The notes below the pieces were generated by a model. It did no database searches and was not told the DNA's origin. It saw only the letters and a list, made by a program, of their open reading frames with translations. The translations under genes and the position numbers were made by a program. DNA of 64,000 nucleotides. It comes from an uncultured delta proteobacterium. Lineage in GTDB: Bacteria; Desulfobacterota; Syntrophia; Syntrophales; Smithellaceae. Of this stretch, positions 26,591-64,000 are shown in pieces (within the stretch, counting starts at the first letter, position 1; the number at the start of each line of letters is the position of its first letter). The stretch is from the NCBI GenBank assembly GCA_963753975.1, contig CAVWEH010000005.1, forward strand, positions 288,001-352,000, in the 5' to 3' direction.

Positions 26591-27388
26591 ATGCCGCATA
26601 TACAATTACATAATCTATCTGTTCACTACGGCAATTTCCAAGTGCTCAACCAGATCACTCTCAATATTCCCGACCGCCAGATTGTGGCTATTATCGGTCC
26701 CTCCGGTTGCGGTAAAACGACATTGCTCAAGAGCATGAACCGGCTGCTGGATCTCTATGAAGAAGCAACACTAACCGGATCGGTAGTCATTGATGGAATA
26801 GATATTTATAATCCAGATGCCGATATTCTTGCCTTGCGGAAAAAGGTTGGTTTTCTTTCCCAGCGGCCTTATCCGCTACCTATGTCGATTTACAACAATG
26901 TCGCTTTCGGACCGAAGATTCACGGACTAAACGGCAAGGCAATATCCAAAAATTCAGCAACACCAATTTCCCAAAGTGCCGAATCCACAATAGATTATTG
27001 TGTCGAACACTATTTGCAACTTGCCGGTCTCTGGGACGAGGTGAAGGACCGCTTACATAGTCCTGCAGCGAAACTTTCCATTGGTCAGTTGCAGCGTCTG
27101 GCACTGGCCAGAACCCTGGCTGTGGAACCGGAGGTTATCCTCGCTGATGAACCCACCTCGGCATTAGATCCAATTTCCGCCAAGATTGTAGAGTCCCAGT
27201 TTAGAATCTTAAAACAGGACTATACCATTGTTGTTGTGACCCATATCCTTCGCCAGGCAAGACGCCTTGCCGATTACGTGGTTTTTATGTTTATGGGTGA
27301 AGTGGTGGAGTATGGACCAGCCGAAGATATATTCAATGCCCCGAAAGATGAACGGACACGGGCCTATATTTCAGGAGAAATCAGCTGA
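26591..27388 (+). CDS. pstB: PstB-family ABC ATPase
   Basis: Walker A GPSGCGKT, variant signature LSIGQLQR, ADEPTSALDP, VTH, P.DERTRAYISG. Confidence 0.88.
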   Translation: MPHIQLHNLSVHYGNFQVLNQITLNIPDRQIVAIIGPSGCGKTTLLKSMNRLLDLYEEATLTGSVVIDGIDIYNPDADILALRKKVGFLSQRPYPLPMSIYNNVAFGPKIHGLNGKAISKNSATPISQSAESTIDYCVEHYLQLAGLWDEVKDRLHSPAAKLSIGQLQRLALARTLAVEPEVILADEPTSALDPISAKIVESQFRILKQDYTIVVVTHILRQARRLADYVVFMFMGEVVEYGPAEDIFNAPKDERTRAYISGEIS

Positions 27389-27389
27389 C

Positions 27390-28316
27390 ATGTCTTTTTA
27401 TAGTATGCCTTACCTGAAGCAGCTCGAATCGGAATCCATCTATATTCTGCGGGAAGTGGCCGCGGAATTTAAAAACCCTGTTTTGCTATACTCTGTGGGT
27501 AAGGACTCCAGCGTACTGGTGCGCCTGGCTCTAAAGGCTTTTTATCCCGGCAAGATTCCATTCCCCCTGATGCATGTAGATACCGGCTTCAAGTTTCCGG
27601 AAATGTATGCCTTTAGGGATGCTTTCTGCAAGAAGCTGGATGTCCGGCTGATTGTGGAGCGCAACGAGGAGTGGATTGCCAAAGGGTGTCATCCCCTCAA
27701 GATGGGTGTTGATAAATGTTGCAGCCATCTCAAGACCGGGGCATTGCTCACAGCCATTAAAAAACATGGCTTTGATGCGGCCATCGGCGGGGCAAGAAGA
27801 GAAGAAGAAAAATCACGAGCCAAAGAACGTGTCTTTTCCCTTCGGGATGCTTTCGGTCAGTGGGATCCGAAGAATCAGCGGCCGGAGGTCTGGGATCTAT
27901 ACAATACCCGTATTAATGAAGGAGAAACAGTGCGCGTCTTTCCTCTCAGCAACTGGACAGAAAAGGATATCTGGCAGTACATCAAACTGGAAAATATACC
28001 GGTTGTGCCCATCTATTTTGCCCTGGAGCGGAAAGTCGTCCGGCGTAACGGTATTTTGATTCCACTTTCGGCAGCGTCGGTAATTGACGAACATTCTGCT
28101 GGTCATACAGGGAGCGAACCGGTGGAAACAGTGCGCTGCCGTTTCCGAAGTCTGGGATGCATTCCTTGCACTGGAGCTATTGCTTCGACAGCGACGAGCA
28201 TTGACGAGATCATTGCAGAAGTTATCATGGCCAAAAAGTCCGAGCGGGAAAACCGTGTAATCGATTTAACCAGCGATGCCTCCATGGAACAAAAGAAGAA
28301 AGAGGGATACTTTTGA
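27390..28316 (+). CDS. cysD: Sulfate adenylyltransferase subunit 2
   Basis: YSVGKDS, GGARREEEKSRAKER, WDPKNQRPE, KKKEGYF; ATG 1 nt after the pstB-like stop. Confidence 0.95.
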   Translation: MSFYSMPYLKQLESESIYILREVAAEFKNPVLLYSVGKDSSVLVRLALKAFYPGKIPFPLMHVDTGFKFPEMYAFRDAFCKKLDVRLIVERNEEWIAKGCHPLKMGVDKCCSHLKTGALLTAIKKHGFDAAIGGARREEEKSRAKERVFSLRDAFGQWDPKNQRPEVWDLYNTRINEGETVRVFPLSNWTEKDIWQYIKLENIPVVPIYFALERKVVRRNGILIPLSAASVIDEHSAGHTGSEPVETVRCRFRSLGCIPCTGAIASTATSIDEIIAEVIMAKKSERENRVIDLTSDASMEQKKKEGYF

Positions 28317-30217
28317 CAACAACCAAGGAAAAAACTCTGCTGCGTTTTTCCACAACCGGTAGTGTGGACGATGGCAAGTCAACGCTGCTCGGGCGGCTGT
28401 TGTACGAAACAAAGACCATTTTCGAAGATCAGTATGCCGCTATAGAAAAAACCTCGCGAAAAAAGGGATTGGCCGAAGTTGACCTGGCGCTCCTTTTGGA
28501 TGGCTTGTCGGCGGAGCGGGAACAGGGAATTACGATTGATGTTGCCCATCGCTATTTCGAGACATCTTCAAGAAAGTTTATTATTACGGACAGCCCCGGT
28601 CATGTTCAATATACCAAAAATATGATCACCGGAGCTTCAACAGCCGACTGCGCCATTATTCTCATCGACGCTCGCAACGGCGTCCTTACCCAATCCAAAC
28701 GTCATGGATTCATTGTATCGCTCCTGCGGATTCCCCATTTGGTTGTGGCCATAAACAAGATGGATCTAGTGGAATATTCTGAAAATGTTTATAACCAAAT
28801 CGTCGAGCAATATACGGACTTTTCCGAAAAACTGGATATTCATGATATTGTCTTTATCCCGGTTTCCGCTCTCAAGGGCGACAATGTGGTGGAGAAAAGC
28901 AATAACATGCCCTGGTATGAAGGCGGCACGTTGCTCCATTATCTGGAGAATGTGCACGTTTCCGCCGACCGGAACCTGGTGGACTTCCGTTTTCCCGTTC
29001 AGTATGTTATCCGGCCGCATCAGGATTTCCGGGGCTTTGCCGGCAAGATTGTTTCCGGTACTTTGAGCCCGGGAGAGGAGATTGTCGTCCTTCCCTCGGG
29101 AAAAACGACGCGGGTGCGTTCTGTAGTAACCTATGATGGAGAACTATCAGAAGCCTTTGCCCCGCAATCTGTTGTGTTGACCTTCGAAGACGAGGTTGAC
29201 GTCAGCCGGGGCAATATGATCGTCAGGAAGAATAATCTTCCCCAGGTTGGAACGAGCTTTGAGGGCATGATCTGCTGGATGGATGATGTTCCCCTGTCCC
29301 TCAACAAGCCGTATCTTTTACAGCATACAACAAGGATTGTTAAAGCTTTTGTTTCCAGAATCGTTTATCTCGTGGATGTGAACAATCTCCATCGCCATCA
29401 GACAGAATCCCTCTCTCTTAACGATATCGGCCGGGTTGAGTTTGAAGTGACCTCGCCAATCTTTTGTGATCCTTATAAAATTAACCGTGGTACCGGCTGT
29501 TTTATTCTAATCGATCCCCTGACGCAGCACACAGTGGCGGCAGGTATGATTCGTGGTTTATCCCGAACAGTCGATGATATTGTTCCGAGAGATGAGAATA
29601 TATCGTCCAAGCAATACAAATCTCCGCACACGGTTTGGAGGGATTGGAACATTGATCGTCAGGCCAGGGAAGCCCGCAACCAGCACAAGGCCGCGGTGCT
29701 ATGGCTTACCGGATTATCCGGAGCGGGAAAATCAACTGTCGCCATGGCTCTGGAAAAAACACTTTTTCAATTAGGTTGCCAAACCATGCTTTTGGACGGG
29801 GATCAGCTTCGCCACGGCCTATCAGCAGATCTTGGATTTTCCGGAAAAGACCGGGAAGAAAATATCCACAGAGCTGCTCAAGTGGCGAGGTTGTTTTTCG
29901 AATCCGGGCATTTGGTCATTTGCACATTCATTTCTCCTTTTGCCAAAGACAGAGCCGTTGCCCGTTTACTAATTCCCGAAGGACGATTTTTTGAAATCTA
30001 TGTATCGTGCGATCTGGCTGTGTGCAAACGGCGTGATCCCAACGGATTATATGAGAAGGCCGTGCGTGGAGAAATTAAAAATTTTACCGGCGTATCATCA
30101 CCGTATGAAGCGCCGGATAATCCGGAAATCCTGTTGAATACAGATGTGCAGAGCGTAGAAGACAGCGTTGCCTGTATTATGGATATGCTGAAGAAGCGTG
30201 AAATTATAAGGCGCTAA
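28313..30217 (+). CDS. cysNC: Bifunctional sulfate adenylyltransferase subunit 1 / APS kinase (NodQ-like)
   Basis: GSVDDGKST, EREQGITID, NKMD; C-terminal WLTGLSGAGKST, LLDGD, NFTGVSSPYEAP. Confidence 0.95.
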   Translation: MTTTKEKTLLRFSTTGSVDDGKSTLLGRLLYETKTIFEDQYAAIEKTSRKKGLAEVDLALLLDGLSAEREQGITIDVAHRYFETSSRKFIITDSPGHVQYTKNMITGASTADCAIILIDARNGVLTQSKRHGFIVSLLRIPHLVVAINKMDLVEYSENVYNQIVEQYTDFSEKLDIHDIVFIPVSALKGDNVVEKSNNMPWYEGGTLLHYLENVHVSADRNLVDFRFPVQYVIRPHQDFRGFAGKIVSGTLSPGEEIVVLPSGKTTRVRSVVTYDGELSEAFAPQSVVLTFEDEVDVSRGNMIVRKNNLPQVGTSFEGMICWMDDVPLSLNKPYLLQHTTRIVKAFVSRIVYLVDVNNLHRHQTESLSLNDIGRVEFEVTSPIFCDPYKINRGTGCFILIDPLTQHTVAAGMIRGLSRTVDDIVPRDENISSKQYKSPHTVWRDWNIDRQAREARNQHKAAVLWLTGLSGAGKSTVAMALEKTLFQLGCQTMLLDGDQLRHGLSADLGFSGKDREENIHRAAQVARLFFESGHLVICTFISPFAKDRAVARLLIPEGRFFEIYVSCDLAVCKRRDPNGLYEKAVRGEIKNFTGVSSPYEAPDNPEILLNTDVQSVEDSVACIMDMLKKREIIRR

Positions 30218-36312: not shown

Positions 36313-36368
36313 GGAGGATTCAATGCCATACCCAGTTGACCTGATATCTATTTTTGTTGGAGGCTTTT

Positions 36369-37280
36369 ATGAAATATGCTTTGCCTAATCTTTTTGTAAT
36401 TGGTGCACCCAAATCGGGCACCTCTGCTTTGGTGCACGCATTGGGCCAACATCCGGATATTTATGTACCTTTAAAAAAAGAGTTAAGATACTTTGATGCT
36501 CGTACATTTTATGATTATAAAGAAGACTATCCAATCAAATCTATTGATGATTATTTATCATTCTATAAATCGCCAGATGCCAAAGATGCATCGTATAGAG
36601 TAGATGGTAGTGTTTATAATATGTATAGTCCAGAATCTATCAAAAACATATTAGAGTTTTCCTCTAATGCTAAATTTATTATAATGCTTAGAGATCCTGT
36701 AATGGCATCTAAGTCAATGCATGCGCAAAGATTGAAATACGGCTCTGGCGGCATGCGGGAAATCTCCGACGATTTTTGCACGTGCTGGAAAAGTCTTGAA
36801 ATGAGAAAATTGGGGAAAATGTACCCTAAGCACTGCCGAAACAAATTTCTTTTTAGATATGATCTTTTATACTCATATGAATTATATGTTCCAAAAATTT
36901 TAAGCATGGTTTCACCAAAGAATATCTATATAGGTAGACATGAGCAGCTTAAAAGCAATCCTGTAACCGTATATAAAGATATTTTTTCATTTCTTAATGT
37001 CAAATTTGATTTTATACCCGAAACAAAAATAATAAATCCGTCTTATATTATTAAGTCAACATTATATAATAAAATAGCTCGTCATTTAGCTGGCAAAAGC
37101 TTAAGATTGAGAAAGTCAATGGGTTTATCTGGCAAAAGAGTTGACATGTTTGCGAAATTGATTTTTCAAAAAATCGAAACGACGCATTACGCTAATTCTT
37201 ATTGTGATAATGAGGTCCGTGCCTTTTTCCAAAGCACATACAAATTTCTGGATACTCTTCAAATCTTAAATAGAGGTTAA
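36369..37280 (+). CDS. PAPS-dependent sulfotransferase
   Basis: 5'-PSB loop IGAPKSGTSAL, KE..YF, 3'-PB motif LRDPV..S.S; GGAGG RBS. Confidence 0.85.
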   Translation: MKYALPNLFVIGAPKSGTSALVHALGQHPDIYVPLKKELRYFDARTFYDYKEDYPIKSIDDYLSFYKSPDAKDASYRVDGSVYNMYSPESIKNILEFSSNAKFIIMLRDPVMASKSMHAQRLKYGSGGMREISDDFCTCWKSLEMRKLGKMYPKHCRNKFLFRYDLLYSYELYVPKILSMVSPKNIYIGRHEQLKSNPVTVYKDIFSFLNVKFDFIPETKIINPSYIIKSTLYNKIARHLAGKSLRLRKSMGLSGKRVDMFAKLIFQKIETTHYANSYCDNEVRAFFQSTYKFLDTLQILNRG

Positions 37281-38730: not shown

Positions 38731-39684
38731 ATGATGTTCTTTTTACCTAAAAAAAACAAACCCATTTCCACCCTGCCTAATTTCCTAATCGTTGGAGCAC
38801 AAAGATGCGGCACGACCTCACTGTATTACTACCTACAGCAGCATCCTGATGTCTATATGAGTCCGATCAAGGAGCCTAAATTTCTAAGCAATCGCGCGGC
38901 CAACCAGGGTAGAGGTCCCGGTGACTATTTAATTACGCAAAGCAGTGTGAGCTCATTTGACAATTACCGCAAACTGTTTGAAAAAAGTGTTGGCAAGAAA
39001 GCGGTGGGTGAGGCCAGTGTGGATACCATGTTTTTTTATCAAGAGGCCATACCGGCCGTTAAACGTCATCTGGGCGATCCGCGGATTATCATTATTCTAA
39101 GAGATCCGGTGAAACGCGCCTATTCCGCTTATAATTTTCTGGTCCGTGATGGCTGGGAATATCTGCCCTTTGCGGACACCCTGAACCAGGAGGAGCGGCG
39201 CAAGCGCGACGGATATTGCTGGCATTGGCTTTATCGCGAAGTCGGCTTGTATGCCGGCCAGGTGCGCGCCTTTCAAGAAAACTTCAGCCGGGTGTCTGTC
39301 CTGTTCTATGATGATCTGAAAATCAATGCCGACGCACTGATGCGGTCTGTATTCACATTTCTTGACATAAACCCCGATTTCGTTTCGTACATCAGCCACA
39401 GACACAATATTTCCGGTATTCCTCGCTGGTCATTTCTGAATGCGCTTTTCGTCAAACCCAAGCGGCTGCACAAAGTAGCCCGCGCCGTCGGTGGAGCGAT
39501 ATTAGGTGCTGATCGATGGGTTCGCCTGCGCGAGCATCTTCGTTCCACTATTCTGCAAAAGCCCGAAGCTATCGATCCTGAAATAGAACAACAACTCAGG
39601 CTGTTCTATCGCGATGATATTCTTAAGCTGCAGGACTACATCGGTAGAGACTTGAGTTCGTGGCTCGAGAAAGAACATAGATGA
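38731..39684 (+). CDS. PAPS-dependent sulfotransferase
   Basis: VGAQRCGTTSL, QHPDV..SPIKEP.F, GEAS, LRDPVKRAYS. Confidence 0.88.
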   Translation: MMFFLPKKNKPISTLPNFLIVGAQRCGTTSLYYYLQQHPDVYMSPIKEPKFLSNRAANQGRGPGDYLITQSSVSSFDNYRKLFEKSVGKKAVGEASVDTMFFYQEAIPAVKRHLGDPRIIIILRDPVKRAYSAYNFLVRDGWEYLPFADTLNQEERRKRDGYCWHWLYREVGLYAGQVRAFQENFSRVSVLFYDDLKINADALMRSVFTFLDINPDFVSYISHRHNISGIPRWSFLNALFVKPKRLHKVARAVGGAILGADRWVRLREHLRSTILQKPEAIDPEIEQQLRLFYRDDILKLQDYIGRDLSSWLEKEHR

Positions 39685-43416: not shown

Positions 43417-44254
43417 GTGCAGGTGAATCCTCATGCCGGGCAACCAACGTCGCCTATGTCCTTGTTGCGTAGTCTCTGGCGCAACCGCCAACTCATCGCG
43501 CAAATGACCAAGCGCGAAGTAGTCGGTCGTTACAAGGGCTCGGTCTTGGGTATCGCCTGGTCATTCTTCAATCCCTTGATCATGCTTACCATCTATACAT
43601 TTGTGTTCTCAGTTGTTTTCAAAGCCCGCTGGAATGTAAGTACTGATGAGACTAAAACGCAGTTTGCCATTGTGCTGTTTGTGGGCATGATCGTCCATGG
43701 CCTTTTTGCCGAGGTGATCAACCGCGCACCAACGCTGATTACCTCTAACGTAAATTTTGTTAAAAAAGTTGTATTCCCGTTGGATATTTTGCCATCAGTT
43801 GCTATAGGAGCAGCTCTTTTCCACAGCTTCGTCAGTCTTGGCGTACTCATGGTTGCCTTATGTATTATTTAACGGTTACCTGAATTGGACGATAATATTC
43901 ATCCCCTTAGTGTTGTTGCCGCTTACTATCCTTACTCTTGGTTTTGCCTGGATGCTGGCATCACTGGGTGTATTCCTTCGTGATTTAGGGCAAACCACCG
44001 GCATTATCACTATGATAATGATGTTTGCCTCCCCCATCTTTTATCCGGTGACGGCGTTGCCGGCAGCATTGCGCCCCTGGATTATGGCCAATCCGCTCAC
44101 CTTCATTATCGAGCAGGCTCGCGCAGTGCTGATCTGGGGACATTTGCCGAACTGGATAGGCTTGGGCATTTACACACTTACCGCCACTGTAGTCGCCTGG
44201 CTGGGCTATGTCTGGTTCCAGAAGACCAGAAAAGGATTTGCCGATGTCCTCTAA
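43417..44254 (+). CDS. wzm: Polysaccharide ABC exporter permease, +1 frameshift near 43858
   Basis: REVVGRYKGSVLG.AWS, VKKVVFP, FLRD, SPIFYP, NPL, F..TRKGFADVL. Confidence 0.9.
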
Positions 44255-45662
44255 TGATATTGCTATACGAGTCAGCAATCTGGGCAAATGTTACGAGATT
44301 TACAACAATCCGCGTGACCGGCTCAAACAATTTGTCATTCCTCGCCTACAGCGGCTTTTCGGACAGCCTCCCAGGCAATACTTCCGCGAGTTCTGGGCGT
44401 TGAAGGATGTCTCTTTTGAAGTAAAGAAAGGCGAAACTGTCGGCATCATCGGACGCAATGGCTCGGGTAAATCCACCCTGCTGCAACTTATTTGTGGAAC
44501 GCTGACACCTACTATTGGAACCGTCGAAACAAATGGCCGCATCGCAGCCTTACTTGAACTGGGTTCCGGATTTAACCCGGAATTTACCGGACGCGAAAAT
44601 GTTTTTATGAATGCCGCTGTGCTGGGTTTAAGTAACAAAGAAATCGACGCTCGCTATGATGACATCGTTGTCTTCGCCGACATCGGACAGTTCATTGAAC
44701 AGCCTGTCAAAACTTACTCTAGTGGTATGATTGTGCGGCTGGCGTTTGCAGTCGCCATCAGTGTTGACCCACAAATACTCATAGTGGATGAAGCGCTCTC
44801 GGTAGGCGACGAGATGTTTCAGCGCAAATGCTTCTCGCGTATTGAAGCCATTAAGAAAAATGGCGCTACTATCCTGTTTGTTTCACACTCAGGGAGTGTG
44901 ATAGTGGAACTTTGTGACCATGCTATGCTCCTGGAGTCAGGCGAAGAACTGGCAATGGGAGTTCCGAAAACTATCGTCGGAAAATACCAAAAACTGATTT
45001 ATGCTCCTCAGGATAAGCGTCATGCCATACTCGAAGAGATACGCGCATCCGGGGTCGGTGGCCGGGCTCGTTCGGCTTCTCAAACATTGCCGGCAACATC
45101 ATCTCCGTCACCCGGTGAAAAAAATGTCACTGACAATGATCTAGAAAATTTTTTCGATCCTAACCTCAAACCACAGAGCACCTTAGAATATGAATCACAC
45201 GGGGCTTACATCATGTCCCCAGAAATACTTACCGTGTCCGGCGAAAAAGTGAATTGCCTCAAACGCGGCAAGAGTTATCGTTATACGTACAAAGTTAGGT
45301 TCGATAAGGCTTCAACCAATGTCCGCTTCGGTATGATGATTAAAACTATCTCTGGTTTGGAGCTAGGTGGCGCAGCATCTGTTCCTCATACTGGTCAGGG
45401 CATTACTTATCTATCGCCGGGAACAATGGTCAGCGTTGAATTCCGATTTACCTGCAATTTAAACCCGGGTTCGTACTACCTCAATGCAGGCGTGATGGGA
45501 AGTAATCGTGAAGGAATGGAAACCTTTTTACATCGTGTACTGGACCTTTGTATGTTCAAGGTAATGCCTGTTTCCAAGAATACTACAACCGCAATAATAG
45601 ATTTCAACTGTGTAGCAGAAATTGAACTTATGAATAATCCCTTGCAGAAAGTTGTAACATAA
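44244..45662 (+). CDS. wzt: Polysaccharide ABC exporter ATPase with C-terminal carbohydrate-binding domain
   Basis: GRNGSGKST, YSSGM, ILIVDEALSVGD; beta-rich C-terminal domain (LNPGSYYLNAGV). Confidence 0.92.
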   Translation: MSSNDIAIRVSNLGKCYEIYNNPRDRLKQFVIPRLQRLFGQPPRQYFREFWALKDVSFEVKKGETVGIIGRNGSGKSTLLQLICGTLTPTIGTVETNGRIAALLELGSGFNPEFTGRENVFMNAAVLGLSNKEIDARYDDIVVFADIGQFIEQPVKTYSSGMIVRLAFAVAISVDPQILIVDEALSVGDEMFQRKCFSRIEAIKKNGATILFVSHSGSVIVELCDHAMLLESGEELAMGVPKTIVGKYQKLIYAPQDKRHAILEEIRASGVGGRARSASQTLPATSSPSPGEKNVTDNDLENFFDPNLKPQSTLEYESHGAYIMSPEILTVSGEKVNCLKRGKSYRYTYKVRFDKASTNVRFGMMIKTISGLELGGAASVPHTGQGITYLSPGTMVSVEFRFTCNLNPGSYYLNAGVMGSNREGMETFLHRVLDLCMFKVMPVSKNTTTAIIDFNCVAEIELMNNPLQKVVT

Positions 45663-46732
45663 TGAACCAAGAAAACAAGAAACGCGTTATCGTCGTTCTC
45701 GGTATGCATCGCAGCGGCACCAGTGCCGTTACGCGTGGGCTCAAAGTACTCGGAGTGGATTTAGGTAACAATCTTCTAGGCCCTCTTGTCAACGATAACG
45801 TGAAGGGGTTTTGGGAAGACTTTGATCTTATGACGCTGAATATCGAGATGTTAAGCGTTATAGGCAGTGATTGGCACTATCTTGCTCCTATTCAACCCAA
45901 CGATATCGAAGTTTTACGGAAAAAAGGTTACTTCCTTCGTGCGGTTGAATTGTTACGCCTGAAGATTGGTAATGTACCTATTTTTGGGTTCAAAGATCCG
46001 CGCGTAGCAAAGTTACTTCCATTTTGGAAAGAGGTATTTAGCCAATGTCAATTAGATGTGAGCTACGTGCTGACTATACGCCACCCCCTCAGCGTGGTCA
46101 AGTCTTTGGCCAAGCGAAATGGTTTTGATCCGGGAAAGAGCTATCTACTTTGGTTGGGACATGTGATCGCTAGTTTGTCAATGACCGTTAATGAAAAGTG
46201 CGTAATTATCGATTATGATCGTCTGATGCAATCACCGGATTACGAATTGAATCGTATTGCAAAAAATCTCAATTTGGCAATTGATCCGACCGAGCTGCAA
46301 AGCTACAAAAGCGAGTTTCTTGATCAAGTCCTGCGGCACACGGTTTACGATCCTAGTGATTTATCGTCGGATGAAGCAAGCCCTCCGCTTATCCGGGAAA
46401 TTTACTCCGAACTTTTGGAAGCAGCGTCGGATAAAAAAAAGGTTGATGATCTATCCCTACATAAGAAAATCAATATCTGGGTAAGTGAATTTGAACGCCT
46501 TAAAACACCTTTAACTCTACTTGATAAGCTTACAAAAACCATACTTGAACGGGATGGGCGGATCGCCACTCTCAATCAGGCATTGGTAGAGATTGCAAGT
46601 AGCAGGGCATGGAAATTAGTAACAGTATTGCGTAAGATAAGAACGTGCTTAACCCCGAAAGATAGCTATCGCGAACATCTTGCAAAAAAAGTATGGCGTG
46701 GAATCAAAAATGAAAAATCCCATAAAAATTAA
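45662..46732 (+). CDS. Sulfotransferase-family protein with coiled-coil/amphipathic tail (candidate chain terminator)
   Basis: LGMHRSGTS, KDPR, RHPLSV..SL; tail ERDGRIATLNQAL...SSRAWKL. Confidence 0.7.
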   Translation: MNQENKKRVIVVLGMHRSGTSAVTRGLKVLGVDLGNNLLGPLVNDNVKGFWEDFDLMTLNIEMLSVIGSDWHYLAPIQPNDIEVLRKKGYFLRAVELLRLKIGNVPIFGFKDPRVAKLLPFWKEVFSQCQLDVSYVLTIRHPLSVVKSLAKRNGFDPGKSYLLWLGHVIASLSMTVNEKCVIIDYDRLMQSPDYELNRIAKNLNLAIDPTELQSYKSEFLDQVLRHTVYDPSDLSSDEASPPLIREIYSELLEAASDKKKVDDLSLHKKINIWVSEFERLKTPLTLLDKLTKTILERDGRIATLNQALVEIASSRAWKLVTVLRKIRTCLTPKDSYREHLAKKVWRGIKNEKSHKN

Positions 46733-54073: not shown

Positions 54074-55000
54074 ATGGGTTTTAAAAAGCTGCTCCGTATT
54101 ATCATCAATAAATTGCTGAATAGTTCTGTCATCAGCAGAAAATTAGATGCTTTGGCTTACGCTGTTGCAGATCGTGTATATGGCTATGTCGATAAAGGCA
54201 CTCAAATTCTTTTGGCTTTGAAATATCGTCAACTCTACGAACGAGGCAAAATGCTTCCTTTTGAAGAAGTAGAATTCAGAAATCATTCCCAATTTGGCGA
54301 AGATGGGATTTTGTGGTATATTTTTTCATTGGTAGGAACAACCAATAAAAAAGCGGTGGAAATTTGTGCGGGAAACGGCAAGGAGTGCAACACTGCAAAT
54401 CTTGTCGTAAACCACGGCTGGAACGCATTGATGGCTGAAGGGGACAAAGCGAAGGCTGATTTTGCAAAGGAATATTACGCTAAGCACCCTGATACGTTTC
54501 TCATTCCTCCTTCTGTCGCAAACGAATGGATCACGGCCGAAAACGTAAACGATATAATAAAACGGAATGGCTTTGAGGGTGAGATAGATTTTCTTGCGAT
54601 TGACGTTGACGGTATGGACTACTGGCTATGGAAAGCCATTAACGTGGCGGTGCCGAGGGTCGTTATGGTGGAAATACAGGTAGTATGGCGCTGTACAGCA
54701 TCAGTGACGGTGCCATATCGCCCTGATTTTAAATTCACGCTCTTGCAAGATATCAAAGATGGTTTGGTAAGCTATGGGGGAGCATCCTTGCCGGCTTTCG
54801 TTAAACTGGCCAAAGAGAAAGGATATCGACTCATTGGAGCCAATAGATTCGGACAAAATGTTGTTTTTATGCGCAACGATGTTGGTGTTGATGTATTTCC
54901 AGAGATAGACCCAGAAAGCGTTTTTTCAAATGCAACTTGCAATTTCGCTTATGATAGCGCCCGACCACTTTATGAAGGGCTGGAGTGGGAAGAGGTCTGA
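54074..55000 (+). CDS. FkbM-like methyltransferase-fold protein
   Basis: SQFGEDGI, VEICAGNG..CNT, IDFLAIDVDGMDYW. Confidence 0.65.
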   Translation: MGFKKLLRIIINKLLNSSVISRKLDALAYAVADRVYGYVDKGTQILLALKYRQLYERGKMLPFEEVEFRNHSQFGEDGILWYIFSLVGTTNKKAVEICAGNGKECNTANLVVNHGWNALMAEGDKAKADFAKEYYAKHPDTFLIPPSVANEWITAENVNDIIKRNGFEGEIDFLAIDVDGMDYWLWKAINVAVPRVVMVEIQVVWRCTASVTVPYRPDFKFTLLQDIKDGLVSYGGASLPAFVKLAKEKGYRLIGANRFGQNVVFMRNDVGVDVFPEIDPESVFSNATCNFAYDSARPLYEGLEWEEV

Positions 55001-55080
55001 AATGGTTTTATCACCTACTTTGAATTGGAAAAACCGGAAACCCTGACAGCACTAGTCCGGCATTGTGAGAGAAGGTACTT

Positions 55081-55948
55081 ATGTCGAATTTATTTAAGGA
55101 TTGTATTAAAAAAGCATACAAAAAGATATACTTATTCATTTATGATAATAATATCTACCGTCCGACTTATAGATATAAGTATACAAAATATAACATACCA
55201 TCTAGGGATGACGTGCCGTATATTATAAATATTGTATATGAAGATATATTTGGGTATAAAACAAATGGAATTTTCGTAGAAATAGGAGCATTTGATGGAG
55301 AAATTTCTAGTTTTACATGTTTTTTGGCTGATATTGGATGGACTGGACATTATGTCGAGCCTATTAAAAGATATTTTATAAACTGCTTGAAACGTCATGA
55401 AAAAAATAAAGTTTCTTGTTACAATTTTTTTATTGGAGATTTTGCAGGAAAATCCACAATGTTCGATTATGGCCCATTTTCTAAAAAAACCGTTGTAAAT
55501 AATTTTAAGGCAATTTCTTCCTTATAATAAAGAAACCGGGGAATCTGTAAATATTAATTGCCTCTCTATGGATATGTTTTTAAAGAATCAAGAAATTCCT
55601 CATGAAATTGATCTCCTATTAATAGATGTAGAAGATGGTGAAATGAATGTTTTAAAATCATTTTCATTATTGGGAAAAGAATATAACCCAACTGCAATTA
55701 TTATAGAGACTACTCACGAAAAAGAGACTAAAGATATACTGACAAGTTCGGGGTATGTCCAATATTGTTCTTTGGATACCGATGATCCCTGGACCAAGAA
55801 TCTAATATTTGTCTCCCAAAAAAGAGCAAATGAACAGTTCCCTTTACTGAATAAAATGAAAAAAATGAAAAATATCTCTTTGCTGGATGAAGTGAAAGAA
55901 GTGAAAATTATCAATTTTTCAGACATAGATTCATTAAAACCAATTTAA
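55081..55948 (+). CDS. FkbM-family methyltransferase, +1 frameshift near 55522 (AT-rich)
   Basis: FVEIGAFDG, GW.G..VEP, then IDLLLIDVEDGE. Confidence 0.7.
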
Positions 55949-56134
55949 AATTTTGTTATTATTTTTTGTTTTCTGCAATATTTAGAAGGGCCTATCATTT
56001 TTCTGCTATACAAATATTTCATTTTGTGGCGATATCTAATATAGTAATTCTAATTCATTTTTATAAATCCAGCGCACGATTATGCGCAAAAAAACGTGGA
56101 ATTTGAATGTTTTCGAAAGGGAAAGGAGTTATTC

Positions 56135-58014: not shown

Positions 58015-58884
58015 ATGGCAGTAAAACGCAAACAGCAATCGCCGCGATCGCGTAAAGCATCAAAGCCAAAGAAAATTAATAGCACTAAGGCAGCTACGCA
58101 ACAAGATGTAGATCCTCGGATGTGTGGATTAATAGATGCGATGAAGCGAGGATGGTATCAGTCAAAAACCGGGGAACTATTTACTGGATTTAAAATCACA
58201 GCGGATGATATCGTTTTAGATGTAGGATGTGGTGATGGAGGCGCTACGCTGTTTTGTGCGAGGCAGGGCGCTCACGTAGTTTTTTCGGATGTCAATGCGA
58301 CTAAAATTAAGGCGCTTATAAAGAAAGCCAATAAAACTAAGGCCAGAAAAGTCGAAGGTTTCGTTAGTGATACAACGCCATTGCCACTACCGGATGAGTA
58401 TGCGACTAAAATCCTGTCGATGGAGATGTTGGAACACACTGCAAACCCTGAAAATATTTTAGCTGAGCTTGTCAGAGTGGGCAAGCCTGGCGCTCAGTAT
58501 TTAATCACAGTTCCTGATTCCCGATCAGAAATGGTGCAGAAGCCTTTTGCGAATTCTATCTACTTTTCGGAACCAAATCACATTCAGATCTTTAATAAAA
58601 AAAACTTTTTCCGGTTGGTGAAAAATTCAGGATTAAAAGTGGAAAGATATGATTCATATAGTTTCTACTGGACCGTTTTTATGTCACTATTCTGGATAGT
58701 TCAGCAGCAGGAATGTTTTAAGGACGCTGTCTTAGACCATATCAAGCCTCCTTATCATCCTGTCTTGCAGAGTTGGGCAAATACCTGGGCTCGATTGCTG
58801 GAATTGAATGGCTCTGAAAAACTGCTAGCGTCCTTTGATAAATATCTACCAAAGGCCCAAATAATCATTGCAAGAAAGCCTTAA
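58015..58884 (+). CDS. Class I SAM methyltransferase
   Basis: VLDVGCGDG, EMLEH, RVGKPGA..LITVP. Confidence 0.85.
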   Translation: MAVKRKQQSPRSRKASKPKKINSTKAATQQDVDPRMCGLIDAMKRGWYQSKTGELFTGFKITADDIVLDVGCGDGGATLFCARQGAHVVFSDVNATKIKALIKKANKTKARKVEGFVSDTTPLPLPDEYATKILSMEMLEHTANPENILAELVRVGKPGAQYLITVPDSRSEMVQKPFANSIYFSEPNHIQIFNKKNFFRLVKNSGLKVERYDSYSFYWTVFMSLFWIVQQQECFKDAVLDHIKPPYHPVLQSWANTWARLLELNGSEKLLASFDKYLPKAQIIIARKP

Positions 58885-58997
58885 TTCTATCGGCATTTAT
58901 GGCAGAAAGAGGTTTATGATTGTATCACAGAAATAGAGAGTAAAAAAATAATTCAGTTTAGTAATATCACCTACTGAAGTCTCAATAATAATATGTC

Positions 58998-59883
58998 TTA
59001 ATTATTATTTACAAAAAATTCGTCGATATTTTTTGTAAATGTTATTTCTTGAAAAAAATTATTTGTTGTTCCTCTATTTAGATAAAGAAAAAATGAACTA
59101 TTTCCGGTATATGATATCAAATATTTAGATTTTGAATGAATGCATAATGATGCCATATAATATTCAGCCCATTCTAATTTATTTTCAATTTTTTCTAAAA
59201 AAATAGGTTGTACCGATGTTTGTGGTGTTAAAGTTTCTTCGAAAAATGTTGCTCTTAATTTTTTTTGAAAAAACAATTTTAATCCAAGATTTTCTGTTTG
59301 AATAAGAATTTTATAATCGGGATTTTTGTCCATTATCTGGGTCACTAATCTAAAATACGGAGCAGGGCAAAGATAATCAAACCCCCCCAAATCAGTCCAT
59401 TTATCAGTATCTCGATAAATTATTGAAATTGAATTATTGGAGTTTACATCATATTTCCTTTTTCAAAAATTCGATTTTTTTTTGTATGTTTTCATTTAAA
59501 TTAAAATATCTATCGAAAAACGGTTTAAAATATTTAATATTTTTTTCGGCATAAATTGTATGATGCTCATTTGGAGTAGCGGGAACAGGCAATTCTTCGT
59601 CAAAATTTATTTCAATTTTTTTATTTATGTTAAAAAAATGGTGGTACATATCGGGTATATTGTGATTAGGGTTAAGATTACTCAAAATATTTTTCCCATC
59701 GATATCTACGGGTAAACGTTTAAATTTTTTATAAATCGTCATTATAGATGTTAACAATAAAGTAAATGGTGCAAAAAACCCGTACTCCGAAATATCTTTT
59801 CTCCCAATTAAAATATTTTTTTTATCGTCGTAATCATACCCAAACAAAATGAGTGAATGTATCATATTTAATTGTTTAACCAT
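58998..59883 (-). CDS. NodZ/fucosyltransferase-like GT, +1 frameshift near 59457; only convincing minus-strand gene
   Basis: Removing one base gives LKKKYDVNSNNSISIIYRDTDKW; GFF near the N-terminus, IQTE, SKYLISYTGNSS; very AT-rich. Confidence 0.55.
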
Positions 59884-60034
59884 TTTTCTAATCCTAATTG
59901 ATCATAAGGATTACATCTCTTCAGGCAGGCGAGATGCATTTCTAGTGTGCCTATAGGATTAATAGCCCTTTCTTCTTGCTTTATTCTGGTGGTGACACCA
60001 AATAATTTTGATAAAATATTATCTTTATGATTAA

Positions 60035-60063
60035 ACTATAAGAAACTCGGTTTTGTATGTCAA
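60035..60063 (-). promoter_or_regulatory. Near-consensus sigma70 promoter for the minus-strand gene
   Basis: Minus strand TTGACA (60063-60058), 17 bp spacer, TATAGT (60040-60035). Confidence 0.65.
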
Positions 60064-60071
60064 GGAAATCT

Positions 60072-60087
60072 TGGCGACAGAATTGCA
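60072..60087 (+). promoter_or_regulatory. Putative sigma54 (-24/-12) promoter
   Basis: TGGCGACAGAATTGCA has GG-N10-GC spacing with TGGC and TTGCA blocks; lacks the consensus AC. Confidence 0.4.
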
Positions 60088-60145
60088 TTGACATCTGATT
60101 GTAAAAGTATGACCAAGTAGTTAGTTAATCAAGGAGAGGTTAAAA

Positions 60146-61183
60146 ATGAAACACGCGGGAAAGGTTGTCTTTGCACTTATAAGTTGCTTAATTACCCTGT
60201 TATTTGTTGAATTGATTTATTCTACAATGCATAAGAACGTTTATCGTCAAGCAAGTTTACAGCTTCGAGCCTGGCCATGGATAATTTATGATCCATTGAT
60301 GGGATGGATGAACAAACCCTTGTATATTCAGCCCGGCCATTTCCGAATCGATAAAAATGGATTTCGGATAATTGAATCATCCCCTGCTTCTGACAAGAGA
60401 AAACGCCTCATAGTATGCATGGGCGACTCCGGTACGTTTGGGATATGGGCAGCACGAAAAGACCCTGTATTTGGTGGATTTGAATTTGATAGTTTTCCGT
60501 CGTATCTGCAAGATATCCTTTCCAGAAACAATGATATGGTCATAAATGCCGGAACAATTGGGTATACGTCTGCCAATTTACTCAGACAATACCTGTCTTC
60601 AATTCGCCGGTTGAAACCTCAAATCATTGTGATCAGGATCGGCCATAACGATCATCTGGAAACCTGCCAACTCGACATTCAACAGCCAAAAAATGTCGTT
60701 CTAAGATATCTCTACAAAACGTTCCCTTCGACTTTAACAGTACAAACCATTGCCCACTATAAATTTTTGTTAACACAAAAAAGCACGTCTGGACTTTGTA
60801 GCACCCCAGATGAATATGAATATAATTTAAGAACATTAATAAACATCGCGAATAATGATGGAATTAAAGTTTTTCTTGTAGACTACCCTTTGCGGTCTCC
60901 AAGCATCCCACCTGCCTCGGAAGCAGATTATCAAGAAAGTTTGAAAAGACTAAAATTAAAATCAGCTGCATCTTATATCGAACTTCATGAAAAATATATG
61001 CAAAGGATGGAAACTGTTGCAAAATCAACCGGCACCCAGATTATTAGAACGAGACACCGGCTGGAAGATCCGAAAGAAAACGCATTTTCCAGATGGGACC
61101 AGCAGCATCCCAATAAGCAAGGTATGCGCATCATTGCCGAGGAGATCGCCAAGGTCTTGAACAAAAATGCAGGGAGTCAATAA
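60146..61183 (+). CDS. Membrane-anchored SGNH/GDSL-family protein
   Basis: N-terminal TM; blocks GDSGTFG, NAGTIGY, GHND, DQQHPN. Confidence 0.85.
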   Translation: MKHAGKVVFALISCLITLLFVELIYSTMHKNVYRQASLQLRAWPWIIYDPLMGWMNKPLYIQPGHFRIDKNGFRIIESSPASDKRKRLIVCMGDSGTFGIWAARKDPVFGGFEFDSFPSYLQDILSRNNDMVINAGTIGYTSANLLRQYLSSIRRLKPQIIVIRIGHNDHLETCQLDIQQPKNVVLRYLYKTFPSTLTVQTIAHYKFLLTQKSTSGLCSTPDEYEYNLRTLINIANNDGIKVFLVDYPLRSPSIPPASEADYQESLKRLKLKSAASYIELHEKYMQRMETVAKSTGTQIIRTRHRLEDPKENAFSRWDQQHPNKQGMRIIAEEIAKVLNKNAGSQ

Positions 61184-61283
61184 CAGGGTATTAGGAATTT
61201 GAAAGTTATGATATAGAGAAAATGGTGGTTTCGAAGATATAACTCAGAACAATATGTAGCATGGATATGATAAAAAAGGGCAT

Positions 61284-61718
61284 ATGATGGACTCACGACA
61301 GCTGCATGAAGATTTATGCCGTCAGCCGGCCGAAGAAAAATCAAGCGCACGTGGACTGGGGATCACTTTTGCTGTCGTATTTTCTATTATAGGTTTTGCG
61401 CGGCTATATCAAGGCCATGATTGGTGGGCAGTATGTCTTTCCGTAGCTGCTGTATTTCTTTTTCTTGCCTATTTCTGGGTAGCTCCTTTGCGCCCGCTTA
61501 ACAATCTTTGGCATCGCTTTAGCTTGCTTTTATTTCATGTTGTAAATCCTGTCATTATGGGAATCATTTTCTTTTCGACTATTTTCCCGATCGGGGTATT
61601 GATGCGGATCTTCGGAAAAGACGAGCTTAAATTGAAATTTGATCGTGAAGCGCATACGTATTGGCAAAAGCGGACACCCTCCCAAAACCTGTCACAAAAT
61701 ATGAAAAATCAATTTTAA
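61284..61718 (+). CDS. SxtJ-family membrane protein
   Basis: SSAR.LG..F, TM hairpin, PL.PLN.LW, IFPIG.LMR.FGKD.L, TYW, C-terminal MKNQF. Confidence 0.8.
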   Translation: MMDSRQLHEDLCRQPAEEKSSARGLGITFAVVFSIIGFARLYQGHDWWAVCLSVAAVFLFLAYFWVAPLRPLNNLWHRFSLLLFHVVNPVIMGIIFFSTIFPIGVLMRIFGKDELKLKFDREAHTYWQKRTPSQNLSQNMKNQF

Positions 61719-61731
61719 AGGGGAATCAATA

Positions 61732-61884
61732 ATGTTGAGCATTATACGAGAACTATGGGCTTTCCTGGTTGTACGAAAGAAGTATTGGCTTTTGCCTATC
61801 ATACTGATGCTGGCTTTGTTGGGCGGGCTTATTGTCTTGGGTAAGGGTTCCGCCATCGCGCCCTTTATCTACACCATATTCTGA
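61732..61884 (+). CDS. 50-aa SxtK/DUF5989-like membrane peptide (absent from the ORF track)
   Basis: MLSIIRELWAFLVVRKKYWLLPIILMLALLGGLIVLGKGSAIAPFIYTIF; AGGGGA RBS; fills the gap between neighbouring genes. Confidence 0.85.
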   Translation: MLSIIRELWAFLVVRKKYWLLPIILMLALLGGLIVLGKGSAIAPFIYTIF

Positions 61885-61901
61885 AACACGAAAGAATATT
61901 C

Positions 61902-63735
61902 ATGCGCATCTTAGGAATCTCAGCGTATTATCACGATAGTGCCGCATGTCTGATTGAGGATGGCCGGATAATTGCCGCTGCCCAGGAAGAGCGTTTTACC
62001 CGCAAGAAGCATGATGCGAGTTTTCCACAAAACGCAATTCGGTATTGCTTGAATGCAGGGGCAATCAAACTTGATCAGATTGACCATGTTACATTTTACG
62101 AAAAGCCTTTCTTGAAATTCGAACGACTTCTGGAGACGTATGTTGCTTTTACGCCGCATGGCTTTCGCTCGTTTCTAATGGCGATGCCGCTCTGGCTGAA
62201 AGAAAAACTTTTTCAGAAAATATTGCTACGGGATGAACTGAAAAAGTTGGGCGCGGCTGAGCATATCGAAGGTCGTTTGCTATTCGCTGAACATCACCAA
62301 AGTCACGCTGCTTCCGCTTTTTTTGCTTCGCCATTCGAAGAGGCGGTTATACTGACAATGGATGGCGTCGGTGAATGGACAACTGCTTCAGCCGCGGTAG
62401 GACGTGGGAATTACCTGGAGATGACAAAAGAAATCCATTTCCCGCATTCAATAGGCCTCCTATACTCTGCATTTACCTACTATCTTGGTTTTAAAGTTAA
62501 TTCGGGCGAATACAAGGTGATGGGGTTGGCTCCGTATGGAGAAGCAAAATATACCGACATTATCCTGGACAACCTTATTGATTTAAAGGCTGACGGTACT
62601 TTCCGGCTTGATATGCAATATTTTGATTATTGCACCGGTCTTAAGATGATCAAATGAGAAGTTCAATGAGCTTTTTGGTAATCTACCACGGAAACCCGAG
62701 GAACCTCTGACGCAAAAACATATGGATCTCGCTGCCTCGATTCAATGGGTTACAGAAGAAATAGTGCTTCGGCTGACGCGCACGCTTTCCAGTGAAACCG
62801 GCAGTAAAAATCTTTGTCTTGCCGGAGGCGTCGCTCTTAATTGCGTGGCTAATGGGAAAATCTTGCGCGACGGCAAATTTGAGCAAATTTGGATTCAGCC
62901 TGCTGCGGGAGATGCCGGAGGTGCTGTTGGTGCAGCCTTGGTGACTTACTATACGCATTTTGGCAAGACACGCCGGGCTAATGGAAGAGATGCAATGTCT
63001 GGCAGTTACCTTGGGCCTAGTTACGAAAACAGTGAAATTGAGCAACAACTGTCCGTCGCCGGCGCACGTTTCGAAAAACTTAACGATTCCGATTTAATTG
63101 CGGCCACTGTAGAAGCATTGGTGGCAGGGAAAGCGGTAGGTTGGTTTCAGGGGCGTATGGAGTTTGGCCCGCGCGCTCTTGGAGCGCGCTCTATACTTGC
63201 AGATCCCCGCAGCGTGACAATGCAGCGGACTTTAAATCTGCGAGTCAAGTATCGCGAGAGCTTTCGTCCTTTTGCACCAGCAGTGTTACGAGAGGATGTG
63301 GCCGACTGGTTTGAACTTGATCGCGACAGCCCATATATGCTTTTCGTTGCAAATGTAGTGAAAAATAGGCAAAGGCAAATGACCGAAAAAGAGCAGGCAC
63401 TGTTTGGAATCGATAAACTTAGCGTGCCGCGTTCCGAAATACCTGCAGTGACCCATGTCGACTATTCCGCAAGGATACAAACTGTGGATCGTGAAACTAA
63501 TCCGAGATTTCACGAGCTCCTGTCCGTTTTCAAAGCTCGCACTGGCTGCCCTGTCCTCGTGAATACGAGCTTCAACATTCGCGGTGAGCCTATTGTTTGC
63601 AGCCCACAGGATGCCTTCCGCTGCTTCATGGGGACAGAGATCGAATTGCTGGTTATTGGTAACTTTATTCTTTACAAAGAAAAGCAGGACACTCGCCTGA
63701 AAATGAATTACAGTGCTATGTTCAATTTGGACTAG
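61902..63735 (+). CDS. CmcH/NodU/SxtI-family O-carbamoyltransferase, +1 frameshift near 62652
   Basis: HDSAA, QEERF.R.KH, EHHQSHAASAF, GEYKVMGLAPYG, then AGGVALNCVANG, GRMEFGPRALG, RESFRPFAP, NTSFN. Confidence 0.9.
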
Positions 63736-63774: not shown

Positions 63775-64000
63775 ATGTTATTTGACGAAAACATTGTATG
63801 TCCAGTAACAGGCGAAGCACTGACTCTCCAGCAAGACAAATGGCTAGTGTCGCCTTCAGGCCGGAAGTATCGAATAATCGATGAAATCCCTTTGATGTTT
63901 GTCGAAGAGGTCGGCTCAATTCCTGCTGAAACGACTAAACTGCCAGACATGGCTGGGAAGGTGACTCATGCCGTACAGAATTTTTACGAAAAAGCGCCTT
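63775..64000 (+). CDS. Trm112-like N-terminal domain, probably of a methyltransferase; runs off window (absent from the ORF track)
   Basis: MLFDENIVCPVTGEALT...SPSGRKYRIIDEIPLMF...VTHAVQNFYEKAP. Confidence 0.6.
   Translation, partial: MLFDENIVCPVTGEALTLQQDKWLVSPSGRKYRIIDEIPLMFVEEVGSIPAETTKLPDMAGKVTHAVQNFYEKAP

Follow-up and report, generated by a model that had tools for sequence, protein, structure and literature searches.

Architecture of the module

We analysed a 64,000-nt stretch of DNA (positions 288,001–352,000 of contig CAVWEH010000005.1, assembly GCA_963753975.1) from an uncultured delta proteobacterium of the family Smithellaceae, and refer to this whole stretch as the window. Near its end lies a module of four kinds of gene, all on the plus strand, encoding an SGNH protein, an SxtJ-like protein, a microprotein of the DUF5989/SxtK family and a carbamoyltransferase (Table 1). 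The genome, 2.43 Mb in 6 contigs, contains a single carbamoyltransferase, a single SxtJ-like gene and a single DUF5989 gene. The preliminary description of this DNA had placed the module inside a glycan locus, and a glycan-assembly locus does span the whole window, encoding many glycosyltransferases, Wzx-type flippases, a Wzy-like polymerase and Wzm/Wzt, as well as CysD/CysNC, three clear sulfotransferases and a weaker fourth, and several methyltransferases. We describe below the parts of the module, their conservation across genomes and the possibility that they form a relay for carbamoyl groups.

Table 1 Coordinates of the module and its key residues (positions in the window; CT, carbamoyltransferase)
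Feature	Position	Strand	Evidence
Membrane-anchored SGNH/GDSL protein, 345 aa	60146..61183	+	Pfam Lipase_GDSL_2, alignment A2, AlphaFold2 model, Foldseek
SGNH catalytic Ser95 codon	60428-60430	+	
SGNH Asp318-His321 codons	61097-61108	+	
SxtJ-like small membrane protein, 144 aa	61284..61718	+	Pfam SxtJ E 0.0017, alignment A3, position
DUF5989/SxtK microprotein, 50 aa	61732..61884	+	Pfam DUF5989 1.5e-24
Candidate shuttle motif, hexapeptide F45-I-Y47-T-I-F50, stop codon directly after	61864..61881	+	
Tyr47 codon of microprotein	61870-61872	+	
CT first piece, 251 aa, Carbam_trans_N profile positions 1-251	61902..62657	+	Pfam 1.1e-75
CT frameshift site	62640..62650	+	Reading-frame change vs relatives
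CT second piece, 337 aa from first ATG, Carbam_trans_N 275-346 + Carbam_trans_C	62722..63735	+	Carbam_trans_C 4.7e-74

A conserved tyrosine tail on a free-standing microprotein

The microprotein matches Pfam DUF5989 (PF19451) with 86.2 bits against a cut-off of 27, its residues 3–50 covering profile positions 2–49 of 49. It comprises an amphipathic N-terminal segment ending in RKK, one transmembrane (TM) span and the tail GSAIAPFIYTIF; the open reading frame (ORF) thus reads as the preliminary description had it, a 50-residue peptide with RKK, a single TM helix and a C-terminal FIYTIF. The family is large (5397 clusters at 90% identity and 3016 representatives at 50% identity, E ≤ 0.001), and its C terminus is strikingly constant. 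F-x-Y-x-x-F ends all 120 of the 120 close relatives among the matches listed, mostly as PFIYTIF or PFIYTLF, and 122 of the best 150 of the 3016 representatives at 50% identity. Among the remaining 28 of these 150, 20 have the motif internally with unrelated residues after it and are read-through products or miscalled stops, [LM]IYTIF is the ending of two and FIY-x-x-[LM] that of three, and the last three are without the motif. The tyrosine, on whose conservation the preliminary description had made its proposal depend, is therefore retained across the family. In an alignment of 21 diverse DUF5989 members (A1), the invariant residues are E7, K16, K17, W19, L20, P22, G39, P44, F45, Y47 and F50.

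Such an ending is rare in the genome as a whole: 13 of 43,727 stop-to-stop segments of at least 30 residues end in F-x-Y-x-x-F, and the only two among them that look like real genes are the microprotein and an MBOAT encoded downstream of the window, the other 11 being segments of 31–52 residues that we deemed non-genes by eye.

Longer DUF5989-containing proteins fall into 75 clusters, none with more than two sequences, compared with 5397 for the stand-alone form; the Pfam lists of multi-domain DUF5989 proteins name SxtJ or carbamoyltransferase families. In the four SxtJ–peptide forms that we read, the peptide is joined where the window SxtJ ends, in three of them via a Trp. Given these near-singleton clusters and the junction at the SxtJ end, we rejected natural SxtJ–peptide or peptide–carbamoyltransferase fusions. 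We take the longer forms to be gene-calling artefacts, and hence the peptide to be free-standing, with a free C terminus. In entries P0248, P0250 and P0254 a Trp links the SxtJ end to the peptide, which would fit translation across a stop, perhaps a TGA decoded as Trp.

Across the peptide family, Lys and Arg residues average 4.6 on the N-terminal flank of the hydrophobic span and 0.57 on the C-terminal flank (n = 128). From this charge bias the N terminus is predicted to lie inside and the tail outside, in line with the earlier use of the positive-inside rule to place FIYTIF in the periplasm.

Likeness of the tail to acyl-shuttle motifs

A 2025 account of MBOAT–SGNH pathways (PMC12148441) describes a six-residue ‘acyl shuttle’ in DltX, FXYXXF, whose Tyr accepts D-alanine from DltB, an MBOAT, and passes it to DltD, an SGNH protein; the preliminary description had summarized the role of DltX in the same way. 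Other bacterial MBOATs are described there as bearing the same motif at their own C terminus, on two extra helices; PatA acetylates the Tyr of its C-terminal motif, and a synthetic acetylated FIYANF peptide serves as a donor for the SGNH enzyme PatB. The same account presents MBOAT–SGNH pathways other than Dlt as lacking a DltX-like microprotein.

FIYTIF fits the published FxYxxF consensus of DltX and PatA-type MBOATs. MBOAT homologues from the phylum of the window have closely similar ends: 29 of 30 finish in F-x-Y-x-x-F, mostly NPFIYFRF, and one ends in YIYFQF. A profile–profile comparison of 131 peptide sequences with the last 55 residues of the MBOATs gave a match over 12 columns (P 3.1e-5, probability 72.9%), with LtqGSAiAPFIYT in the peptide set against l..g..npFIYF in the MBOAT tail, whereas the best of seventeen other 55-residue segments of the same MBOAT alignment, taken as a control, reached P 0.011 and probability 3.8%. 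As judged from sequence, the likeness is one of motif and stops short of proof of common descent. Pfam DltX (PF12459) has no match to the MBOAT tail. The peptide profile has no match in PDB sequences at E ≤ 10, and look-alikes of the peptide outside DUF5989 in the protein atlas yielded no usable match.

Gene neighbourhood of the microprotein

To place the module in a wider context, we compared 80 loci from named genomes of many phyla, in 78 of which the peptide could be placed uniquely. Cultured isolates that carry the peptide include Reyranella aquatilis KCTC 52223, Azorhizobium oxalatiphilum CCM 7897 and Marinimicrococcus flavescens YIM 152171. In 67 of the 78 loci the gene just upstream of the peptide is SxtJ, and a carbamoyltransferase is adjacent in 72, mostly after the peptide and in a minority before SxtJ. 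Both SxtJ and the carbamoyltransferase are present in 66, with the same stand-alone arrangement of a roughly 50-residue peptide as in the window. In 39 of the 78 loci a divergent, TM-anchored SGNH gene is found no more than 1 kb from the edge of the module, in 27 of them on the same strand. SGNH matches, at 2.82 per 10 kb in the first kilobase, thin out to 0.72, 0.38 and 0.24 over the second, third and fourth kilobases and do not exceed 0.15 farther out than 4 kb. These SGNH calls rest on a local profile built iteratively from the same loci; 46 of 56 SGNH-labelled ORFs have some SGNH-type Pfam match at E ≤ 0.01, many of them below the cut-off. The other 39 loci have no adjacent SGNH gene, and in them the trio stands amid unrelated housekeeping genes such as PntB, MutL, RsmB and EF-G, and regulators. 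Since the loci without SGNH keep the trio, we regard SxtJ, peptide and carbamoyltransferase as the core and the SGNH protein as a frequent fourth member. An MBOAT occurs within 9 kb of the peptide in 6 of the 78 loci; the four of these MBOATs with readable C termini end in FIYF[DQ]F, and the other two are fragmentary.

In a second sample, 301 genomes of the phylum of the window, we called the peptide at E ≤ 1e-14 and the SGNH type with the profile of alignment A2 at E ≤ 1e-8. The peptide was found in 66 of the 301 genomes, with four weaker matches set aside. The SGNH type of A2 occurs in 114 genomes, that is, in 65 of the 66 with the peptide as against 49 of the 231 without it, figures that overstate independence, because the genomes counted are related to one another and peptide-adjacent proteins were the source of the SGNH model; generic SGNH enzymes may also be among the matches, and genome size is a possible confounder. 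In at least 29 of the 66 genomes an SGNH gene lies within 5 kb of the peptide (among 150 of 340 matches listed). Homologues of the downstream MBOAT were found in 78 of the 301 genomes, and 32 of the 66 peptide-bearing genomes have no match to that MBOAT as query. The preliminary description had proposed co-occurrence with both SGNH and MBOAT genes as a check; an association emerges for SGNH in both samples, with SGNH genes accompanying the peptide far more often than expected from chance positioning, and MBOATs adjoin few of the 78 loci.

The three relatives that we examined from the family and order of the window differ in the order of the parts. One reads carbamoyltransferase (611 aa)–SxtJ–peptide–SGNH, another SGNH–SxtJ–peptide–carbamoyltransferase (559 aa) and the third SGNH–carbamoyltransferase (643 aa)–SGNH–peptide; peptide, carbamoyltransferase and SGNH occur together in all three, and SxtJ was not found in one of them. 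An alphaproteobacterial locus (L056:9037-10538) has an SGNH gene next after the peptide, and the 18 kb examined contain neither SxtJ nor carbamoyltransferase; upstream lie a GT2, a DedA/VTT protein and a seemingly frameshifted ORF for a polytopic membrane protein, and the other strand carries a tail-bearing MBOAT and a second SGNH gene.

The SGNH and SxtJ-like proteins

The SGNH protein matches Pfam Lipase_GDSL_2 with 60.8 bits (cut-off 32.9) and retains blocks I, III (GxND) and V (DxxH) of the superfamily as GDS (with Ser95), GHND and D318-Q-Q-H321. A hydrophobic helix at residues 4–28, predicted to span the membrane, precedes a small β subdomain (about residues 46–68) and the SGNH core, so the protein is predicted to be membrane-anchored and has intact catalytic blocks, as first described. 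All sequences of a 39-member SGNH alignment (A2) have G72, G93 and S95, and nearly all have N134 and H321. An N-terminal TM segment is present in 38 of the 39, and Lys and Arg residues are more numerous before than after the span in 20 and less numerous in 8, which lends mild support to an SGNH domain lying outside, as in DltD and PatB.

The AlphaFold2 model of the SGNH protein is of good quality (predicted local distance difference test (pLDDT) 87.8; predicted TM-score (pTM) 0.89). Searched with Foldseek, it retrieves GDSL esterases first (3rjt, Axe2, TesA; E about 1e-10), and its best query TM-score, 0.51–0.52, is to CgnD (8a2n). Against PDB sequences the SGNH profile likewise finds esterases at 9e-19, then AlgX (6.8e-11), AlgJ (3.6e-5) and PatB (2.5e-4), with DltD absent from its best 60 matches. 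By fold and sequence the protein could be a transferase or a hydrolase. The A2 profile matches CgnD from residue 48 onwards and thus includes the β subdomain before the GDS block, which is absent in generic esterases. CgnD is described as an SGNH-fold ‘putative esterase’ of the crocagin cluster, which also encodes a carbamoyltransferase, CgnI, and was found to be a very slow leader peptidase (PMC10070186). We treat this likeness as a lead only.

The SxtJ-like ORF is less clear-cut. It matches Pfam SxtJ (PF19588) with 19.5 bits and E 0.0017, below the gathering cut-off of 24.4. It nevertheless aligns with the 32 other sequences of alignment A3 at 21–44% identity, and 32 of these 33 sequences match Pfam SxtJ at E ≤ 0.01. 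The assignment made in the preliminary description thus holds by alignment and by position before DUF5989, and falls short by Pfam score. The AlphaFold2 model (pLDDT 86.3) contains three helices (22–43, 48–64 and a long one, 69–109), followed by a basic C-terminal tail that ends in NQF and should be cytoplasmic; the SxtJ proteins of A3 share a conserved end, [MLF]-x-x-QF. Pro102 is the sole invariant residue among the 33 sequences, and a catalytic role for SxtJ through an invariant His or other catalytic residue was rejected, as A3 contains none.

A frameshift in the carbamoyltransferase

The carbamoyltransferase gene is split into two ORFs in different frames by a +1 shift, an extra A in CAAATG at about position 62,645. 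The first frame reads FDYCTGLKMIK and then a stop, and the other resumes with NEKFNELFG...MDLAASIQ, where relatives read FDYCTGLTMTN-x-KF without interruption; in the three relatives from the family and order of the window the gene is intact. Both Carbam_trans_N and Carbam_trans_C are present (E 1e-75 and 5e-74), but not on the single polypeptide that characterizes NodU/CmcH, so that the gene called a NodU/CmcH carbamoyltransferase in the preliminary description has the domains of that family and is broken by one base.

Two other genes in the window are also split between frames, an ABC-2 permease (43417-44254) and an FkbM methyltransferase (55081-55948). With two further frameshifted genes in the same 64 kb, errors of insertion or deletion in the assembly are a serious possibility. 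Three frame-split genes within 64 kb of a 6-contig assembly may reflect either such errors or several real pseudogenes.

A tailed MBOAT downstream and the surrounding locus

The preliminary description had noted that no MBOAT lies in the window and that one might lie beyond base 64000 and complete the system. The window indeed contains none and an MBOAT does follow, but it does not complete the module. Its gene, at L003:7245-8657 (window-equivalent 66,245-67,657), shares the strand of the module, begins 2.2 kb beyond the window and some 2.5 kb after the carbamoyltransferase, and follows genes for a methyltransferase and a GT4 protein. The MBOAT has a Pfam MBOAT match (3.5e-29) and a C-terminal NPFLYFRF. 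Directly after its gene comes an AlgX-like SGNH gene (L003:8669-9853, Pfam ALGX 8.8e-10), the pair together occupying L003:7245-9853 (window-equivalent 66,245-68,853). With a FLYFRF tail and an AlgX-like SGNH partner to itself, this MBOAT forms a self-contained module of the PatA/PatB or AlgI/AlgJ type, which probably adds O-acyl groups to the same glycan outside the membrane.

Other features of the locus bear on the glycan itself. CysD-like and CysN/CysC genes adjoin three sulfotransferase-family genes (27267-30217, 36354-37280, 38731-39684, 45662-46732), the third of these sulfotransferase-family genes being a weak match below the Pfam cut-off. The polysaccharide probably carries sulfate groups in addition to methyl groups. 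Two stretches, 55000-56000 and 58500-60100, have a low G+C content (0.27–0.30, against 0.40–0.48 around them), which suggests a mosaic, cassette-like make-up of the locus. The second includes two minus-strand ORFs (58998-59390 and 59449-59883) that have no Pfam match and lie directly upstream of the module.

Comparison with related systems

Among the closest parallels to the microprotein is DltX. In the Dlt system, as described in PMC12148441, a membrane microprotein with an extracellular C-terminal FxYxxF Tyr serves a TM-anchored SGNH enzyme, and the window peptide belongs to the same size class, with a single TM span, a tail predicted to lie outside, and FIYTIF immediately ahead of the stop codon. 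The two differ in their partners and chemistry: the window module lacks an MBOAT (no search was made for a carrier protein such as DltC), its donor is a soluble-type carbamoyltransferase, its partner membrane protein is the three-helix SxtJ and the group passed on would be carbamoyl rather than D-alanyl. The DUF5989 peptide, moreover, is found in Gram-negative lineages, judged by genome names. Where Dlt has a tail-less MBOAT, the sole MBOAT of this genome has a tail of its own, and MBOATs are rare near the peptide. The PatA–PatB and AlgI–AlgJ/AlgX pairs share with the module the PF-I/L-Y-x-x-F end, the helix before it and an SGNH partner, but there the tail is fused to an MBOAT that supplies the tunnel and a catalytic His, whereas the window tail is a free-standing peptide. 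OatA-type AT3–SGNH proteins also pass a group to an SGNH domain outside the membrane through an acyl-Tyr intermediate, as described in PMC12148441. Their Tyr differs in lying in a loop of the ten-helix AT3 domain, and the donor is acetyl-CoA.

On the enzymatic side, the carbamoyltransferase has the Carbam_trans_N plus Carbam_trans_C architecture of NodU, NolO, CmcH and TobZ, which we take to act alone on a cytoplasmic acceptor. It is unlike them in belonging to a subclass tied to SxtJ and the peptide in 66 of the 78 loci, and in that the window gene is split.

A further parallel comes from the saxitoxin clusters, in which sxtL, we assume, adjoins sxtK. In the description given in PMC2885083, sxtI encodes an O-carbamoyltransferase, sxtJ and sxtK are adjacent short ORFs without known function, and sxtL encodes a GDSL lipase, proposed to hydrolyse the carbamoyl group. 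The series sxtI–sxtJ–sxtK–sxtL therefore comprises the same four gene kinds as the window module, a likeness drawn from gene descriptions rather than sequences. It differs in that the acceptor is a small alkaloid rather than a glycan and in that SxtL is proposed to be a decarbamoylase (PMC2885083). Among our loci, the arrangement nearest to that in the literature is in an Oscillatoriales cyanobacterium (L081:1-6702), where carbamoyltransferase, SxtJ and peptide are followed by three tandem SGNH genes.

A proposed carbamoyl relay and its alternatives

We tentatively propose that the module is an MBOAT-free relay, in which a carbamoyl group would travel from the carbamoyltransferase to Tyr47, on to Ser95 of the SGNH protein and finally to a glycan outside the cytoplasmic membrane; we consider this quite possible, although rather less than probable. 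From the parts, their order, the motif, the synteny and the MBOAT independence that we observe, together with the predicted topology, we infer the covalent steps and the acceptor sugar. The carbamoyltransferase would make an activated carbamoyl group in the cytoplasm, and the enzyme would be kept at the membrane by SxtJ, here taken as a scaffold that holds the peptide and docks the enzyme, and by the conserved N-terminal helix of the peptide. Tyr47, in the predicted periplasmic FIYTIF tail, would become O-carbamoylated and pass the group to Ser95, and the SGNH protein would then carbamoylate a hydroxyl of the glycan made by the window locus.

Several points weigh against such a relay. Its weakest link is how a group made inside would reach a Tyr outside without an MBOAT-like tunnel: no route for carbamoyl is evident, since SxtJ has only three helices, a single invariant residue (Pro102) and no invariant His, and carbamoyl-AMP, to our knowledge, lacks a long arm such as phosphopantetheine. 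Carbamoylated serine hydrolases usually turn over slowly, and we know of no characterized enzyme of this carbamoyltransferase family that does not act directly on the final acceptor in the cytoplasm. The model and the profile of the SGNH protein are closest to ordinary esterases, with AlgX, AlgJ and PatB ranking lower. Half of the 78 loci lack an adjacent SGNH gene, and the caveats on the phylum-wide counts noted above apply here as well. Pfam DltX has no match to the peptide at E ≤ 1 in the genome search or at E ≤ 10 in hmmscan, and the sole carbamoyltransferase of this genome is frameshifted.

The main rival reading, which we regard as rather unlikely, holds that SxtJ and the microprotein only tether or regulate the carbamoyltransferase, so that a lipid-linked glycan is carbamoylated on the cytoplasmic face; the Tyr tail would then be structural, and the SGNH protein an independent esterase, for example a decarbamoylase or deacetylase as proposed for SxtL. 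The loci in which the trio stands among unrelated genes without an adjacent SGNH gene, the resemblance of the SGNH protein to esterases above all, the carbamoyl hydrolysis proposed for SxtL in PMC2885083 and the absence of an evident membrane conduit all fit this picture. It accounts less well for the tail, as a structural element would hardly keep an exact free C-terminal F-I/V-Y-x-x-F, matching a catalytic shuttle motif, in thousands of sequences, and it leaves aside both the near-universal presence of the SGNH type in peptide-bearing genomes of the phylum (65/66, against 49/231 without the peptide) and its position directly at the module edge. The likeness between tail and shuttle could instead be convergence or chance, with the peptide serving an unrelated role such as assembly or stability of an SxtJ–enzyme complex. 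The match is short, at 12 columns, nothing in Pfam DltX, the PDB or the protein atlas matches the peptide, and 13 of the 43,727 random frames end in F-x-Y-x-x-F; but chance would leave unexplained the invariance at the very C terminus together with the SGNH association and the shared helix-plus-tail layout, and we consider this improbable.

A role for the microprotein like that of DltX beside DltB, in which it would work for the neighbouring MBOAT and its cargo would be acetyl or some other acyl rather than carbamoyl, appears very improbable indeed. The MBOAT is on the same strand in the same locus, 2.2 kb past the window end; it has its own FLYFRF and its own AlgX-like SGNH protein, the four readable of the six MBOATs in the 78 loci are also tailed, 32 of the 66 peptide-bearing genomes have no match to it, and the constant neighbours of the peptide are SxtJ and the carbamoyltransferase. 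We accordingly rejected the nearby MBOAT as partner of the peptide. Independently of how the module works elsewhere, it may in this organism be a decaying remnant in which the frameshift is real and no carbamoylation takes place. The split falls in the sole copy of a gene that is unbroken in relatives, and yet neither half shows any other damage and each has high Pfam scores, the change amounts to a single base in a short run of A, and the two further frameshifted genes in 64 kb of a 6-contig assembly look like indel errors; we think a remnant on the unlikely side, and activity of the module in this assembly is possible only if the frameshift is a sequencing error.

Implications

If the relay operates as proposed, DUF5989/SxtK would be the first free-standing Tyr shuttle outside Dlt and the first for carbamoyl, and, together with SxtJ, would allow a carbamoyltransferase that is soluble and ATP-dependent to supply an SGNH transferase facing outwards with no MBOAT or AT3 protein involved, a claim that we make with considerable reserve. 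Our literature search found no paper naming DUF5989 and none joining ‘acyl shuttle’ with ‘carbamoyl’, and a query combining O-carbamoyl, polysaccharide, carbamoyltransferase and periplasm returned only a figure legend on lipopolysaccharide core; the module may well represent an undescribed way of carbamoylating sugars outside the cell membrane. What the window itself contributes is two Tyr-tail modules side by side in one glycan locus, with a self-sufficient neighbouring MBOAT, and, through the comparisons that it led to, a phylum-wide SGNH association and a control-tested profile match to MBOAT tails, tempered by the frameshifted carbamoyltransferase.

A relay of this kind would bear on the long-open question of the roles of SxtJ and SxtK, giving a function to two orphan families present in thousands of genomes (DUF5989 alone has the 5397 clusters counted above), and would make SxtJ, SxtK and SxtL of saxitoxin clusters, possibly together with SGNH proteins of the CgnD kind, components of a machine for carbamoyl transfer instead of bystanders or hydrolases. 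It would offer a small and readily testable system, consisting of a 50-residue peptide, one Tyr and one Ser, and would explain carbamoylation of glycans and other molecules outside the cytoplasmic membrane. Besides the MBOAT and AT3 systems, the acyl-tyrosine shuttle principle would then include a third kind, which needs no MBOAT and uses other chemistry, and in this bacterium a single surface polymer would receive carbamoyl groups from one Tyr-shuttle module and acyl groups from another working in parallel, in addition to sulfation and methylation.

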